A DNA stretch of 64,000 nt from a virus (Duplodnaviria; Caudoviricetes): the IMG/VR virus record IMGVR_UViG_3300031857_000014; one strand, written 5' to 3'. The position numbers were made by a program, and so were the translations under genes. This document shows, one piece after another, positions 41,673 to 46,555 of the stretch. The notes under the pieces were generated by a model. That model made no database searches. It saw nothing but the letters and a program-made list of their open reading frames with translations, and had not been told where the DNA came from. Every line of letters starts with the position of its first letter. Positions within the stretch are counted from its first letter, which is position 1.

Positions 41673-42399
41673 AGAATTCTACCCCAAATCCGATTACAAA
41701 TTGGATTTCTTCTCCTGATGGGGTTGTTGCTTTTTGGGTTAAATCTAACCCCGGTTTATTATCTGCAATAAATTTTCTAAAGTCCTGTGCATCTTTAATT
41801 GGTAGATTTTCAATTAAATTTCTGATATTCATTAAATCCTTATTTCCTGCAACCGATTTAATCATGAATTCAAGTTGTTTGGTCATAATCGGAGCATATC
41901 CATTACCATTCCAACTCTTTTGAATTTCTCTTATTTCCGCTTCTTGTTTTTGAGTCAAGAATTTGAAAGTAATATCTACTTTAGATTTTTCCATAAAATA
42001 TGAATATTCCCCATTTGCATCAGGTGTTAAATTGAAATCTTTAACTTTTAAAGTACTTAAATCTACTTTGGTTTCAAACTCTTTGTCTGTTTTCGGGTCA
42101 GTTAGTGTTACTGTATATTCTGAACCAAATGCGGTGTTTCTTAAAAAGATTAAAATCGCTTGTCTATCCTCTTCCGCCAATTCCTCAATTGAAATATCTT
42201 TATCCAAAATCTTTCTTTTCAAAAGTTCGGAGACTATCGCATTTGTTTGAATTAGGTTTGGTGCCGCTAAAATATTTTCGTCCGCTGCTGTTAGATATGC
42301 AACTCTAACTGATTTTTTTCCATTTGGATAATGAATACCTTTTGTTGGTAATTCTACCACATCATAAGAAATTGTTGGGTCTACTCTAAATTGTTCCAT
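41650..42399 (-). CDS. Tail assembly chaperone / baseplate hub assembly protein (T4 gp26-like)
   Basis: 249 aa. VELPTKGIHYP...VAYLTAADENIL, DRQAILIFLRNTAFGSEY, FGVEFFRP. Lies between tube and tape measure. Confidence 0.8.
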   Translation of the reverse strand: MEQFRVDPTISYDVVELPTKGIHYPNGKKSVRVAYLTAADENILAAPNLIQTNAIVSELLKRKILDKDISIEELAEEDRQAILIFLRNTAFGSEYTVTLTDPKTDKEFETKVDLSTLKVKDFNLTPDANGEYSYFMEKSKVDITFKFLTQKQEAEIREIQKSWNGNGYAPIMTKQLEFMIKSVAGNKDLMNIRNLIENLPIKDAQDFRKFIADNKPGLDLTQKATTPSGEEIQFVIGFGVEFFRPFYGI

Positions 42400-42405
42400 A
42401 GTATT

Positions 42406-42434
42406 AATTTAATCAATAACTATTGGAAAGTCAA
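42406..42434 (-). promoter_or_regulatory. Sigma70-like promoter TTGACT-N17-TAAATT
   Basis: Minus strand, just after the tube terminator. The -10 box is 6 nt before the chaperone ATG. Confidence 0.45.
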
Positions 42435-42448
42435 GTTTTTGATAAAAT

Positions 42449-42478
42449 AAAAAACCCCATGTGTTGAACATAGGGTTT
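42449..42478 (-). terminator. Intrinsic terminator after the tail tube gene
   Basis: Minus-strand AAACCCTATGT-tcaac-ACATGGGGTTT-TTT, with one U-G wobble valid only on this strand. Confidence 0.7.
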
Positions 42479-42498
42479 GTAAAATATTTGTTTTTGTA

Positions 42499-42987
42499 TT
42501 AGTAAACTAAGATACATCTATCTGGTCTCATTGAACAAGTGATAGTTGCCACATCATCTCTTGAATAATCAAGATCATTAAAGTTTAAGTCAGTAATGAA
42601 TGTACCTTGAAGTATCCATTTCTCAACCACAACACCAGTTGGGTCAAGCATTTCCAATTCAATGTCTTTTTTATAACCAGCAGCATAACCCATACGACCT
42701 GTAACAGATTCAGCGTGTAAACGGAACCATTCCATTAACGCCTGTGCCGCTGAAGGACCAATTGGGTCTTTGAAAGTTACTCTCATTTCATTCCATTCAA
42801 ATCTACCAGCAACATAAGTTGATGTATTGATAAATGGAATTGCAACAGAATTGATTTTTGCACTAGGTCTAGCCGTTGATGTCACATACCACTCGTTAAT
42901 ACCCAAAGATGATGGAAATCTAAGGATGAATCGGTTTACTCTTTTCGGTTCATATGGAACCGGCATTTTCATTAATAAATCTGCCAT
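42499..42987 (-). CDS. gp19: Tail tube protein (T4 gp19-like)
   Basis: NRFILRF...RPSAKINSVAIPFINTSTYVAGRFEWNEMRVTFKDPI...YKKDIELEMLDPTG. Confidence 0.92.
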   Translation of the reverse strand: MADLLMKMPVPYEPKRVNRFILRFPSSLGINEWYVTSTARPSAKINSVAIPFINTSTYVAGRFEWNEMRVTFKDPIGPSAAQALMEWFRLHAESVTGRMGYAAGYKKDIELEMLDPTGVVVEKWILQGTFITDLNFNDLDYSRDDVATITCSMRPDRCILVY

Positions 42988-43100
42988 TTTTTAAATAATT
43001 AAGTTTTTTTGTTATCTTCCTATAAATACTACGTATTTGAGAATATTTTATTTTTTTTGAAAAATCTTGACTTTGTCATTTTTTTTCGTTAGTTTTTTAC

Positions 43101-43256
43101 TACCCAGTATCTAGGTTCCAGTATTCAGTATTAATATAACCAATTCCAGCATCTAGAATATTATATAAATACTAGAATATCTAGTTCTAGTATCTAGAAT
43201 AATAAATATAATATTATAAAACTAGTACTAGCATACTAGTTCCAGTATACTGGGTA
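43101..43256. repeat. CTAG / CCAGTAT iterated non-coding region, putative replication origin
   Basis: Nine CTAG between 43111 and 43239, several (TT)CCAGTAT-like units, flanking inverted repeats TACCCAGTAT (43101-43110) and ATACTGGGTA (43247-43256), and AT-rich spacers. Confidence 0.5.
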
Positions 43257-43261
43257 AATAG

Positions 43262-43277
43262 TGTTCCACGTGGAACT
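43262..43277. promoter_or_regulatory. parS-like palindrome TGTTCCACGTGGAACT
   Basis: Perfect 14-bp palindrome GTTCCACGTGGAAC fitting the parS family consensus tGTTnCACGTGnAACa (15 of 16). Confidence 0.65.
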
Positions 43278-43313
43278 ACCATATTCCCCCTTTATGTTAC
43301 CGAGTTTTTATAC

Positions 43314-43343
43314 AAAAAAAATCCTCTAGTTTTCTAGAGGATT
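43314..43343 (-). terminator. Intrinsic terminator after the sheath gene
   Basis: AATCCTCTAG-tttt-CTAGAGGATT stem with a T7 run on the minus strand. Confidence 0.75.
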
Positions 43344-43364
43344 TATATTTTATTTTAATGTTGA

Positions 43365-46271
43365 TTATATATTCTCAAATGAAGCACCAGTCGGAGTTAT
43401 ATTGAATTCAATCTCAATAAATTCAAGAGACCTAGTTGGTTTTAAGTAAATCTTTCCTCTCAATGTGTTTGCATCTAAATCCTCTGGATCACTAGACACT
43501 CTTACACGGAAATCGTAAAGACCTCTTTCTTTCTTTATAGACTCAAGAATAGGATTTACTAATCTCAAGAACTCTTGTCTTACTTGTTCGTCATTTTGTT
43601 CAAATAACAACCTTACAGATACCGCAGAAATCAATTTTCTTGCTCTCAACAATAATCTTCTAACATTAATTCTATCTAATGCAGATTCTCTTAATTGAAG
43701 AGTTTTATTACCCCAAATAATTGTACCTGTATCTGAGAATGTTGCGATAGGGTTAATTCTGTTTGAATATAAGGTGTCTCTTTCATCTAATGTAAGTTTC
43801 TTATTCGCTTTAATTGATTTAACAAGACCTCTTGAATAACCTGCAACTGCGAACCAAGGATACGATACATTATCGGTTAACGCAATATTTCTAACAACTT
43901 CACCTGTAGGCGGGATGTATAATTGTGTTGCGTTGTCTGTATCTCTAACCTGTATCCACGGCCAGTATGTCGCTGAATAGTTACTATCAATTGCGGAATC
44001 GTCAATCGCAGCAACTACTTCTTCAACACCTTCAGCACCAGTGAAATTAGGAGAGTTCATAATATATAATGAATCCGCTCTATCTTCTTCAATCATTTCT
44101 ATCGCTTGGTTAACCAATGAACTATGATCGTAGAAATTAATACCTGGTGTAGCGAATACATTTATATCAACCGCTTCAGGATTTTCAAATGTTTGAATAC
44201 CTTGAAGATACGCATAATAGTCAGAATTACCATTATTAACATCAAATACACCGCCATTATTTTGATTATTTGCGTTATATGTTGGTTTACCATAAATGTA
44301 ACCATCACCATAAGTTCTAACATTTCTATAGATATCCCAACCATCAAAACCACCACCAGCAGCAAATGTAAATTTACGATATCTGATGTCAGTTAATTTA
44401 TCTCCTACTGGTTGACCCTCCAAATCGTATGGAGTTGTAATATATGTGGTACCTGAAATTGTTGATGCGTTTACAGATAAGTGGAAACCAGATGTGGATG
44501 AAGTACCTTCAGCACCTTTATATTTAAATAAATCATTATCATATCTTGAACCTGTCTGATTTGATAAACCTAAAGATACTTTTCTTACTTTATCTCCATT
44601 TGATAATACCGCGGTACCATCAGCGTCATAATACATTGTATCGCCAGCATCAAAGTATTCTGTTTTATACAAAACATTACCTAAAGTACCACCACCAAAT
44701 GTTTGATTATTTACGAATCCTTTAAAACCAGCAGGGAATGCATCAACAGGTGCGTTATCTGCTATAGATAACATAATTAACTTAGAACGTAATTCATAGT
44801 CACCATTTGATGTACCTATTTTTTTAGCGACATAACCTGGTAAATCAGGATTCATACTACATCTTGAATATTTTTCTAAAACAACAGGATTATCATCAGT
44901 ATCATAGTAATCACGAACCAATAAATCAAAATCACCATTATCCAAATTAATATTAGCTATTTGAATTTTAACTGTGTAGTTTGCACTTTCACCATCAGGT
45001 ATTGTTATAATTTCAAACAAATCTGCAACTTTACCACCTCTAACCTCTGAAACAACCATTGGTGTTATCGGAGATAACCATTGACTCATAAAGTTTTCTG
45101 ATTCTGAATTTACAACTTTTGTTAAACTTAAACCTCTAACATATCCTTTTTGAAATGCAGATTGTAAGAATTTAGGGTATGCCTCATGAACGTATATTGG
45201 ATAGTCTGTTCTTGGTTTATCAAACACATCACTTCCCAAAACTTTAGTTATGTATTTTGAAGATGTTTGATCCATGGAACAAGTGAATTGTTTTGCACCA
45301 CCTGTTGTACCCGTTACGTTAATTATAAATTCTGCTAATGGATTTGTAGTAACACCACTTAAATCATCAATATCGAAACGAGATGAAAGAAATGTTTCAA
45401 GACTTAATGTGTTTTGTTGATAGAGACCTCTACTTCTAAGTGCAGCAACTATTAAATCTTTATACTGTGTTAACTCACCTGCATCGTATTTGAATCTAGC
45501 CACATCAAAATATCCATTTTGTGCGTCATATGCAAAAAGATAAGAATAAACACCATCAACATTTCCACTACCATCAAAAGATAAAAGTTTGTTTATCCAT
45601 TCTTTACCGTTAGGACTATCATCAGTATAAAACCCATTAAGTGGGGAAACTTGTTCAATTCCAAATAAAGATGATAATTCGGTAATCGCATTACCATCCA
45701 AATCGGTAACAATATATGCACCTAAATCAGGTACTAATCCCATAGTAAACCAGTTACCATCTTCAGAAGCACCATATCCACCAAAATTTGTTTCAATGTA
45801 ATCTGTTATTGTTGTTCCTTCAAATGAGAATATATTTGAAAGTTCATTATAAAAAATACTTGATGATGGGTTAGATGGGTCCATAGAGTCCACTACTAAA
45901 CTAGTATGTGCACTTGTATCTGCGGTAACACCAGCTAATGTTTGTATACCAAATGTTGTTGTTGGTTTATATCCAGTTAAACCAAGAATTCTTGTTACGA
46001 ATAGTTGGTTTGATTCTTCTAGATACGATTTAGCAACATACGGTAATTCATATTTTGGATTATCTGCACCGTCTTTTACAGGTGTAGTACTTCCAAAGTA
46101 TACTTTGAATTCATCAAAATTGGTAATTAATATTGGTTCAAATGCGGGACCCTTCAATGTCTCACCAACCAATCCGAGTGTTGTAACACCAACACTTTGT
46201 GCTACGAATGTTAAATCTTTCTCTGAGGTATATACACCGGGAGAAACGAATACTTTGTTTGAATTTGCCAT
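43365..46271 (-). CDS. gp18: Contractile tail sheath protein (T4 gp18-like)
   Basis: 968 aa. FVSPGVYTSEKDLT, GETLKGPAFEPI, INVFATPG, SNYSATYWPWI, PWFAVAGYSRG, LDRINVRRLL, PTRSLEFIEIEF. Confidence 0.97.
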   Translation of the reverse strand: MANSNKVFVSPGVYTSEKDLTFVAQSVGVTTLGLVGETLKGPAFEPILITNFDEFKVYFGSTTPVKDGADNPKYELPYVAKSYLEESNQLFVTRILGLTGYKPTTTFGIQTLAGVTADTSAHTSLVVDSMDPSNPSSSIFYNELSNIFSFEGTTITDYIETNFGGYGASEDGNWFTMGLVPDLGAYIVTDLDGNAITELSSLFGIEQVSPLNGFYTDDSPNGKEWINKLLSFDGSGNVDGVYSYLFAYDAQNGYFDVARFKYDAGELTQYKDLIVAALRSRGLYQQNTLSLETFLSSRFDIDDLSGVTTNPLAEFIINVTGTTGGAKQFTCSMDQTSSKYITKVLGSDVFDKPRTDYPIYVHEAYPKFLQSAFQKGYVRGLSLTKVVNSESENFMSQWLSPITPMVVSEVRGGKVADLFEIITIPDGESANYTVKIQIANINLDNGDFDLLVRDYYDTDDNPVVLEKYSRCSMNPDLPGYVAKKIGTSNGDYELRSKLIMLSIADNAPVDAFPAGFKGFVNNQTFGGGTLGNVLYKTEYFDAGDTMYYDADGTAVLSNGDKVRKVSLGLSNQTGSRYDNDLFKYKGAEGTSSTSGFHLSVNASTISGTTYITTPYDLEGQPVGDKLTDIRYRKFTFAAGGGFDGWDIYRNVRTYGDGYIYGKPTYNANNQNNGGVFDVNNGNSDYYAYLQGIQTFENPEAVDINVFATPGINFYDHSSLVNQAIEMIEEDRADSLYIMNSPNFTGAEGVEEVVAAIDDSAIDSNYSATYWPWIQVRDTDNATQLYIPPTGEVVRNIALTDNVSYPWFAVAGYSRGLVKSIKANKKLTLDERDTLYSNRINPIATFSDTGTIIWGNKTLQLRESALDRINVRRLLLRARKLISAVSVRLLFEQNDEQVRQEFLRLVNPILESIKKERGLYDFRVRVSSDPEDLDANTLRGKIYLKPTRSLEFIEIEFNITPTGASFENI

Positions 46272-46399
46272 CGATTGTTATTTGCTTAAATATATTTTTA
46301 TTGATTACTTATAAATATCTTTATTTTATTGAAAGATTTATGTATTTTTAACGGTAAGTATCCTTTTATATACTTAATTATCTTTTTTTATCTTTTTAC

Positions 46400-46555
46400 A
46401 TGAAGAATAAGACCAAAAACGTAAAAATTAGTGATAAACACCATCAGATGTTAAAAAATCACTGTGAAAAAAACGGGCTTAAAATCTATAAGGTTATAGA
46501 AAAGTGGATTGAAAATCTATCAAAGAACGATAAGAAAGACATTTATGGTGAATAA
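46400..46555 (+). CDS. Small ribbon-helix-helix (Arc/CopG/MetJ-like) DNA-binding protein
   Basis: Hand translation MKNKTKNVKISDKHHQMLKNHCEKNGLKIYKVIEKWIENLSKNDKKDIYGE* (51 aa). Below the ORF-track size cutoff. Confidence 0.7.
   Translation: MKNKTKNVKISDKHHQMLKNHCEKNGLKIYKVIEKWIENLSKNDKKDIYGE

Follow-up and report, generated by a model that had tools for sequence, protein, structure and literature searches.

We examined the gap between two tail genes in a stretch of 64,000 nucleotides (the window) from a tailed phage (Duplodnaviria; Caudoviricetes), IMG/VR record IMGVR_UViG_3300031857_000014. The gap carries a cassette that consists of an array of short repeated boxes, a promoter-like site directed into the array and a parS-like palindrome. 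A first-pass annotation, made by a model from the letters of the window, had taken the region for a replication origin or a protein-binding array, with a small RNA as the alternative. Our analysis leans, by a modest degree, towards an array that would be coated by a ribbon-helix-helix (RHH) protein. The contig holding the window is 141,857 bp long (30.8% G+C) and the virus record is 43% complete. The genes around the site are all on the minus strand, the sheath gene being followed by the tube gene, and the features of the locus are as follows.

43365-46271, minus strand: tail sheath gene, 968 aa (phrog_23, E 1e-61).
43311-43344, minus strand: intrinsic terminator of the sheath gene, an 11-bp stem followed by a T run; the hairpin scores as a terminator on the plus strand too.
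43262-43277, no strand: parS-like palindrome TGTTCCACGTGGAACT of host type, 16 bp long and 5 bp from the array.
43101-43256, no strand: box array with 14 CYAG/CTRG tetramer cores (nine CTAG, four CCAG, one CTGG).
43066-43100, plus strand: putative host-type promoter, a conserved 35-bp box with the -33 element TTG (43067-43069), a 20-nt spacer and the -7 element TAGTTTTT (43090-43097).
43021-43028, minus strand: putative late promoter of the tube gene, TATTTATA, placed after the array and 41 nt ahead of the tube ATG.
42499-42987, minus strand: tail tube gene, 162 aa, T4 gp19 type (phrog_4542, E 1e-25; PF06841 on relatives).
46400-46555, plus strand: gene for the candidate array binder, a 51-aa RHH protein (ParG/CopG-like), divergent from the sheath gene and 3.1 kb from the array.

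By gene calls that are crude, the gap (42988-43364) measures 377 bp and is the longest intergenic one in the window, as the first-pass annotation had it. Read in the direction of the genes, it holds the sheath terminator, the parS-like palindrome, the array (43256 to 43101), the 35-bp box (43100 to 43066) and TATTTATA (43028 to 43021). The nine CTAG tetramers that had drawn attention to the region, said to lie within about 130 bp, start at 43111, 43153, 43172, 43181, 43187, 43194, 43222, 43228 and 43236 and span 129 bp (43111-43239). The whole contig has 118 CTAG, which gives an expectation of 0.11 for the array (Poisson P(≥9) ∼ 5e-15); the runner-up among 150-bp windows of the contig contains three. 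When CCAG and CTGG are added, the number of cores rises to 14 in 43104-43253. A perfect 10-bp inverted repeat bounds the array (TACCCAGTAT, 43101-43110, and ATACTGGGTA, 43247-43256) and the palindrome CCAGTATACTGG occupies 43242-43253; both had been described before and are confirmed here. The boxes are heptamers, YYAGTAT or ATACTRR, that occur in both orientations with AT-rich spacers between them. In the window and in most relatives they form a left and a right cluster of opposed orientation around an AT-rich centre, with boxes spaced 6-8 bp apart within clusters. The centre in the window (∼ 43130-43230) falls within the least stable 0.08% of the contig's 100-bp windows. The array is the sole cluster of its kind in the contig, and this is also the case in a complete 310-kb relative (G002, IMGVR_UViG_3300017917_001524).

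Relatives of the tube protein are abundant, with > 4,000 in public metagenomes and at least 593 in IMG/VR, and 86 distinct sheath-tube gaps were taken from ∼ 150 loci. Nearly all of these have the cassette at the identical position, which it occupies in at least 150 IMG/VR relatives; the late promoter is present in 85 and a parS-like site (by regular expression) in 34 of the 86. Within a sub-clade of 26 distinct sequences, the late promoter has the highest pairwise identity by column (0.94), followed by the promoter box (0.84), parS (0.82) and the two box clusters (0.82 and 0.78); the spacers reach only 0.54-0.64. The boxes are far more conserved than the spacers and are therefore under selection, rather than drifting repeat DNA; the selection on boxes and promoter is purifying and acts on the cassette as double-stranded DNA. 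Where genes have been inserted into the gap, they sit either between terminator and parS or between promoter box and late promoter. Insertions thus spare parS, array and promoter, which travel as one block. The inserted genes include HNH/homing endonucleases (L008:1247-2770, L029:508-2169 and L054:2416-2772; phrog_3339, phrog_559 and phrog_2340), which mark the gap as an insertion hot spot, and L,D-transpeptidases (YkuD; L050:1040-1738 and L051:2337-3712), each of which has a late-type promoter of its own just ahead of the ATG, at a distance of a few bases.

The comparison of relatives also redefines the repeat. Of 151 cases, the first, second and third base after CCAG (or before CTGG) is T in 129, A in 133 and T in 118, respectively. 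The unit of the array is therefore not CTAG but the heptamer YYAGTAT. A clade of 13 sequences uses TTAG instead and most of its members have no CTAG at all; in ten of them 7-16 direct TTAGTA units follow a strict 8-bp period, with gaps that are multiples of 8, and in the other three (L134, L139, L140) the arrays have decayed. The units of the L058/L061 pair are CCGGTA. Some relatives have amplified modules of 14 or 30 bp and reach up to 22 cores. The orientation of the boxes relative to the promoter varies by clade.

The first-pass annotation had pointed to TTGACT-N17-TAGTTT on the plus strand (43067-43095), directed into the array with no open reading frame (ORF) after it. The motif is there and, in the window, no ORF follows. 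We suggest that the Bacteroidota layout TTG-N20-TAnnTTTT fits the site better than the -35/-10 elements of sigma-70; TTG, 20 nt and TAGTTTTT correspond to the -33/-7 consensus of Bacteroidota promoters. The putative transcription start would lie at ∼ 43100-43104, so that the array begins at the start site. The pattern TTG-N19-21-TAnnTTT[TG]-N3-9-CYAGTA recurs in 55 of 86 unique relatives, and the divergent L003/L018/L029 clade retains the promoter layout with a different sequence (TATATTTT). The distance from the promoter to the first box is fixed, whereas its spacing from the late promoter of the tube gene differs by tens of bases. Upstream of genes in the complete relative, sense copies of TTG-N18-21-TAnnTTTG outnumber antisense ones by 27 to 8, so phages of this group use host-type promoters. 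For the site at the array itself, promoter activity is read from the motif.

The palindrome at 43262-43277 matches the bacterial parS consensus, TGTTNCACGTGAAACA. It is directly coupled here to a second, phage-specific repeat module. Together with the promoter type, it points to a host among the Bacteroidota. On the other side of the array, 18 genes of the contig (sheath and tube included) have TATTTATA upstream in gene orientation, versus five with the reverse, and we read this octamer as the late promoter of the phage group. The array lies upstream of the late promoter of the tube gene and therefore outside the late tube mRNA. The late promoter (for example at 43021-43028 and 46310-46317) corresponds to T4's TATAAATA in reverse complement, and sister clades whose tube proteins are 40-60% identical retain it. 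The stem of the sheath terminator changes in sequence among relatives while the hairpin itself is kept.

Cultured distant relatives and sister clades (tube identity 40-76%) have gaps of 36-150 bp with the late promoter only; no array is present in Flavobacterium phage immuto (45-bp gap) or Microcystis phage Mel-JY01 (94-bp gap), and LR756508 has a different layout. Two complete sister genomes (G006 and G007, 351 and 373 kb) contain no such array anywhere. DNA similarity to phage and plasmid records does not extend beyond the sheath gene. A search of 185,579 bacterial species genomes did not find the 18-nt block CCAGTATACTGGAACTAG, whose occurrences in viral contigs are all at the sheath-tube position. 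Judged by this distribution, the cassette is an acquisition of one clade. The first-pass annotation had proposed the same locus in relatives as a check, and the outcome is that the cassette is conserved within its clade and lacking from sister phages. The array-less sisters do have host-type parS: G007 (372,793 bp) carries five perfect copies of TGTTTCACGTGAAACA within 30 kb (283,737, 294,719, 297,567, 302,882 and 312,962) and G006 carries one parS-like site at 328,861. The parS element is therefore widespread in the wider phage group, independent of the box array.

A candidate for the protein that binds the boxes came from a blind screen of the 452 ORFs of the complete relative, in which an ORF was kept if it was present in two other array-bearing genomes and absent from both array-less sisters. 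Among the 46 ORFs that remained is one of 52 residues, directly ahead of the sheath gene and encoded on the other strand, whose orthologue in the window is the 51-aa RHH gene. The protein has the sequence pattern strand-helix-Gly-helix. A profile built from 18 orthologues and run against the PDB matched ParG (1p94, E 0.013) and also omega (2bnw and 1irq, weak) and the viral RHH protein SvtR; the ten best named ESM-atlas clusters are all RHH families. Searches of five genomes with RHH_1 (PF01402) gave no match or weak sub-threshold ones. Array and gene co-occur at the level of the clade: the gene is found in the array-bearing G001-G003 (E ∼ 1e-17) and is absent from G006, and G007 yields only a broken match (E 0.03). 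At least 279 relatives of the gene are present in IMG/VR. In the β-strand, K-N-V-K-I-S, residues K6, N7 and K9 are invariant and V8, I10 and S11 are conserved in at least 90% of sequences, the TTAG clade included. This near-invariant segment, presumably the strand that reads DNA, would fit the invariant AGTA part of the box.

Other conserved elements accompany the gene. Residues 42-51 of the RHH protein (P0271) form a basic-then-acidic tail, KPKKKD(I/L)YG(E/D), in which K45, D47 and Y49 are invariant and which a partner protein might use for docking. The stretch from the late promoter of the sheath gene to the RHH gene holds a near-invariant inverted repeat, ATCTTTG-N7-CAAAGAT in relatives and ATCTTT...AAAGAT in the window (46317-46337), and a second one, AGATAGTTATTTATCT in relatives and TAAGTAT-N8-ATACTTA in the window (46355-46376). 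Both may be operators of divergent promoters. Another DNA-binding gene, for a histone H1-like Hc1 protein of 60 aa (PF07432, E 2e-16; L167:19747-19929, that is 119,747-119,929 in G002), is likewise common to the array-bearing genomes and absent from the two sisters.

The words from which the boxes are built are avoided elsewhere in these genomes. In three genomes with CYAG arrays the Markov odds are 0.58, 0.37 and 0.60 for CTAG and 0.65, 0.49 and 0.70 for CCAG/CTGG, which ranks among the eight most depleted of 136 words; CTAG likewise belongs to the most depleted tetramers. The depletion of CCAG/CTGG is not confined to CCWGG. G003, which has a TTAG array, shows no depletion (CTAG 1.07, CCAG/CTGG 1.10). 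The same contrast appears in flanking coding DNA when 60 loci with CYAG arrays are compared with 10 loci with TTAG arrays (CTAG 0.74 versus 2.20 per kb; CCAG plus CTGG 2.47 versus 5.80 per kb). In the L058/L061 lineage CYAG is close to zero in the flanks and has been purged from the array too. CCAG and CTGG are equally depleted on the sense strand of genes, and avoidance thus acts on double-stranded DNA. The depletion is also present in array-less sister phages, so avoidance predates the cassette, and the link between array and avoidance amounts to about two evolutionary events. Many bacteria and phages are short of CTAG for reasons of another kind. We regard the link as a lead, not a result. 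That the boxes consist of words avoided by the rest of the genome hints at a further CYAG-reading factor; we found no earlier description of such an array. Other palindromes are avoided as well, and these differ by genome: GATC has no copy in the 288 kb of G001 and odds of 0.21 in the contig of the window, CCGG has no copy in G006, where CGCG has odds of 0.07, and GCGC has odds of 0.3-0.4 in G000-G002. Such extreme avoidance looks like restriction avoidance by phages with unmodified DNA.

Our preferred explanation, which we hold to be slightly better than an even bet, is that the 51-aa RHH protein coats the boxes and so switches the promoter. RHH dimers would coat the array cooperatively, one dimer per box, as ParG does on parH/OF and omega on its heptads. 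The resulting nucleoprotein complex would sit on the transcription start and turn the promoter, which we suppose to be active early, off once the RHH protein accumulates, and it would mark one fixed place beside a host-type parS on a genome of ∼ 300 kb. Conservation of the boxes, the single copy, an architecture like that of RHH arrays and a clade-specific ParG-like gene 3.1 kb away together lend good support to the protein-binding array of the first-pass annotation. As to the purpose of a protein-coated array, an early start of replication that is primed or opened by a transcript and then shut is one tentative possibility, and a promoter switch only, or another role, is to be held just as tentatively; a genome-organising or centromere-like site that acts with parS is possible but to be rated below these.

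Several observations weigh against the RHH protein as the binder. Its Pfam matches are both below the cut-off (RepB-RCR_reg, E 4.7e-4, 20.5 bits against 21; ParG, over the whole RHH domain, E 1e-3, 19.6 bits against 21.4). The AF2 monomer is one long helix with a pTM of 0.37 and is of no use for a fold search. The co-occurrence of gene and array is a single gain, and among 46 ORFs with this pattern about one is expected within 4 kb by chance. The gene is intact in L061 and L069, where the boxes are nearly purged. Autoregulation through the boxes was considered and rejected; the region upstream of the RHH gene has other conserved inverted repeats and no clear YYAGTAT boxes. ATPases of the ParA type (PF13614; PF01656 and PF09140 were not searched) are missing from five genomes, one of them 100% complete, although control genomes were positive. 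Finally, avoidance in sisters that have neither array nor RHH gene means that a second CYAG-reading factor must exist, and this factor could be the true binder.

The last point can be made into an explanation of its own, in which double-stranded CYAG is recognised by a second factor of host or phage and shunned in the remainder of the genome, and the array, a deliberate cluster of such sites, is a sponge, decoy or programmed processing site. The lack of avoidance in the TTAG genome, the purged L058/L061 arrays and the strand symmetry all agree with it, but the small number of events and the depletion in array-less sisters do not, and no candidate CYAG-reading factor was found: a screen for genes lost in the non-avoiding G003 left seven, all in regions missing from that 75%-complete contig. 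We consider it improbable. Still less probable is that the plus-strand promoter yields a functional non-coding RNA of ∼ 160-250 nt, which could be a structured molecule closed by the inverted repeat or a repeat RNA acting as a sponge for an RNA-binding protein. In its favour, transcription from the conserved promoter would begin in the first arm of the inverted repeat, the plus strand has a hairpin terminator further on, and the window copy folds much better than shuffled sequence (z -5.0 on the plus and -6.3 on the minus strand); that strong folding arises because the units are inverted. Across 48 relatives the two strands fold equally (mean z -3.3 versus -3.4), and the orientation of the boxes to the promoter flips among clades. 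In nine members of the TTAG clade the promoter-strand RNA is for the most part nearly unstructured, with minimum free energies of -1.5 to -16.5 kcal/mol and z from 0 to +1.4 in six of the nine and down to -2.3 in L141. A conserved RNA fold was rejected on these grounds, and of the small RNA of the first-pass annotation an unstructured transcript alone survives. Rfam 15 has no family for the locus (best match in 42000-44500, 24 bits against a gathering score of 55), ARAGORN finds no tRNA or tmRNA there, the L003/L018/L029 clade has no terminator between array and sheath gene, and the strand-symmetric avoidance of box words in genes speaks for selection on DNA, not RNA. An argument for antisense RNA from a bidirectional terminator was dropped, the A-tract upstream of the hairpin being present at 44% genome-wide against 52% at the sheath terminator. 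We think it least likely of all that the array is functionless repeat DNA, be it a satellite prone to slippage or what is left of a small mobile element with terminal inverted repeats. Core number does shift fast (0-22), tandem duplications of 14-31 bp are seen in L059, L152 and L157 and decay in L134, L139 and L140, and the gap attracts homing-endonuclease genes. Such DNA would not be expected at an identical position in all relatives, with box clusters as conserved as parS and promoter and above the spacers, with fixed promoter spacing, and with no second copy in any genome searched, the bacterial ones included.

Two further explanations accept a protein on the boxes and give it another purpose. 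The origin explanation overlaps with our preferred one and differs in the claimed role only: in an early origin of the T4 oriE/oriF kind, host RNA polymerase would start at the promoter, the transcript would open or prime the AT-rich stretch, and the box protein would be the initiator or the off-switch. We rate this as doubtful, though ahead of the other alternatives. A T4-type origin has a promoter and an AT-rich unwinding element of ∼ 50-100 bp, and both are found here, the promoter by its motif; the promoter is always directed into the array at a fixed distance and has no ORF after it, the centre is easily melted, and the site is single-copy in the contig and in the complete relative. The layouts of oriF/oriG and of oriE resemble the cassette, and oriE reportedly lies among late virion genes that are transcribed the other way. 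Since T4 relatives do not conserve their origins, an origin confined to one clade is plausible. The cumulative GC and AT skew proposed as a check shows no inflection at the site on the 5-kb, 2-kb or 600-bp scale (contig, complete relative and local); skew tracks the coding strand and its minimum is 15-20 kb from the site. The T4 origins oriA and oriC have no inflection of strand composition either (PMC3016281), and neither skew nor distribution settles the origin question, since some T4 origins lie away from skew switches and the T4 origins as such lack conservation. Against an origin of the iteron/DnaA type, the units are 7-8 bp long rather than the 17-22 bp of iterons, 42988-43364 has no DnaA box within one mismatch, DnaA boxes are not enriched in the window, and no initiator gene was identified, adjacent or elsewhere. 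The complete sister genomes lack the array anywhere, and what is conserved here is the boxes, whose sequence specificity an unwinding element would not require. Of the origin suggested in the first pass, then, the promoter-into-AT-rich layout and the easy melting stand, and skew, DnaA boxes and the array-less sisters speak against it. A centromere-like or genome-organising site, at which an RHH-bound array and a parS bound by host ParB position, compact or partition the chromosome, for instance in a carrier state, is in our view unlikely. In architecture it comes nearest to parH and omega parS, which are RHH centromeres, the candidate binder has the partition protein ParG as its best structural relative, there is one site per genome, and parS, array and promoter stay joined despite nearby gene insertions. 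The missing ATPase tells against it, as do an RHH protein without the long N-terminal tail by which ParG works on ParF, the presence of parS in a minority of relatives while the array is in nearly all, and the sisters that carry parS without array, by which the two are separable; the promoter is left without a role. ParB_N (PF02195) searches of the five genomes gave nothing or weak sub-threshold matches and no convincing ParB. About equally unlikely is a 'centromere-origin' hybrid, in which a ParG-like RHH protein, a box array, a host-type promoter and a host parS, with no ParA, would recruit host ParB/SMC (perhaps ParA) to one point to start, organise or partition replication. If true, this would be a plasmid-style module in the tail cluster of a giant lytic-type phage, with boxes of otherwise purged words, and would have no described counterpart.

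Apart from the cassette, the complete relative G002 carries a CRISPR-like mini-array (L173:11096-11525, that is 231,096-231,525) that is absent from the contig of the window. It lies in an 889-bp non-coding gap at a strand switch and consists of a 36-nt repeat, GTTGTTACTTATATTAATTCGCAAGGAAATCACAAC, in five exact copies and two with three mismatches each, separated by unique spacers of ∼ 30 nt. The ends of the repeat resemble those of the Cas13b-type repeats of Bacteroidota.

The phage group is very common in lakes and has no cultured member. The cassette offers a short, defined cis site (∼ 160 bp of DNA) and a named candidate partner of 51 residues. If the two bind, genome organisation in Bacteroidota jumbo phages would become accessible for the first time, RHH-array recognition would gain a new specificity class, and the phage would have a possible link to the host ParB/parS system.

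Three known systems bear comparison with the cassette. T4 oriF/oriG combine a promoter with a downstream AT-rich unwinding element, and oriE combines an early-mode promoter with evenly spaced 12-nt repeats (PMC3016281). The cassette shares with oriE, oriF and oriG a promoter followed by an AT-rich, easily opened stretch, and T4 origins are lineage-specific as well (PMC3016281); oriE in particular has an early-mode promoter and evenly spaced short direct repeats of no assigned role. The repeats of the cassette are 7-8 bp long and in both orientations rather than 12-nt direct repeats as in oriE, and the cassette gives no skew signal; the early transcript of oriE encodes RepEA/RepEB, whereas nothing is encoded here. 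The parS sites of pSM19035 are contiguous 7-bp heptads of mixed orientation bound by the RHH protein omega (PMC9499535). As in pSM19035, where one RHH dimer occupies each unit, the boxes here are 7-bp units in contiguous runs of mixed orientation; the pSM19035 arrays double as operator and centromere (PMC9499535), and omega is among the weak PDB matches of the candidate binder. The omega heptads are strictly contiguous and upstream of promoters, whereas the array here is downstream of the start and has a spacer-rich centre, and there is no δ-type ATPase.

The third system is parH/OF of TP228, whose 12 and 8 degenerate tetramer boxes are separated by AT-rich spacers of 4 bp, lie in direct or inverted orientation and bind one ParG dimer each (PMC3130281). 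The cassette differs in its box, YYAG(TAT) and not ACTC, in its spacing of 6-8 bp and in its longer AT-rich centre. It also has no ParF/ParA partner that we could find, its RHH protein lacks the long N-terminal tail, and the RHH gene is 3.1 kb away rather than downstream of the array, in a lytic-type phage of ∼ 300 kb and between tail genes. RHH arrays contain at least four short degenerate boxes (4-7 bp) at a 7-8 bp period, with AT-rich spacers and in both orientations, and here there are 14 cores in 156 bp at 6-8 bp spacing. Like parH/OF (PMC3130281), the cassette is an array of ∼ 100-150 bp with 8-20 degenerate tetramer boxes, AT-rich spacers (8-bp period) and both direct and inverted units; its layout tolerates rearrangement, the array lies partly on the promoter, and ParG itself is the top PDB match for the 51-aa protein encoded nearby.

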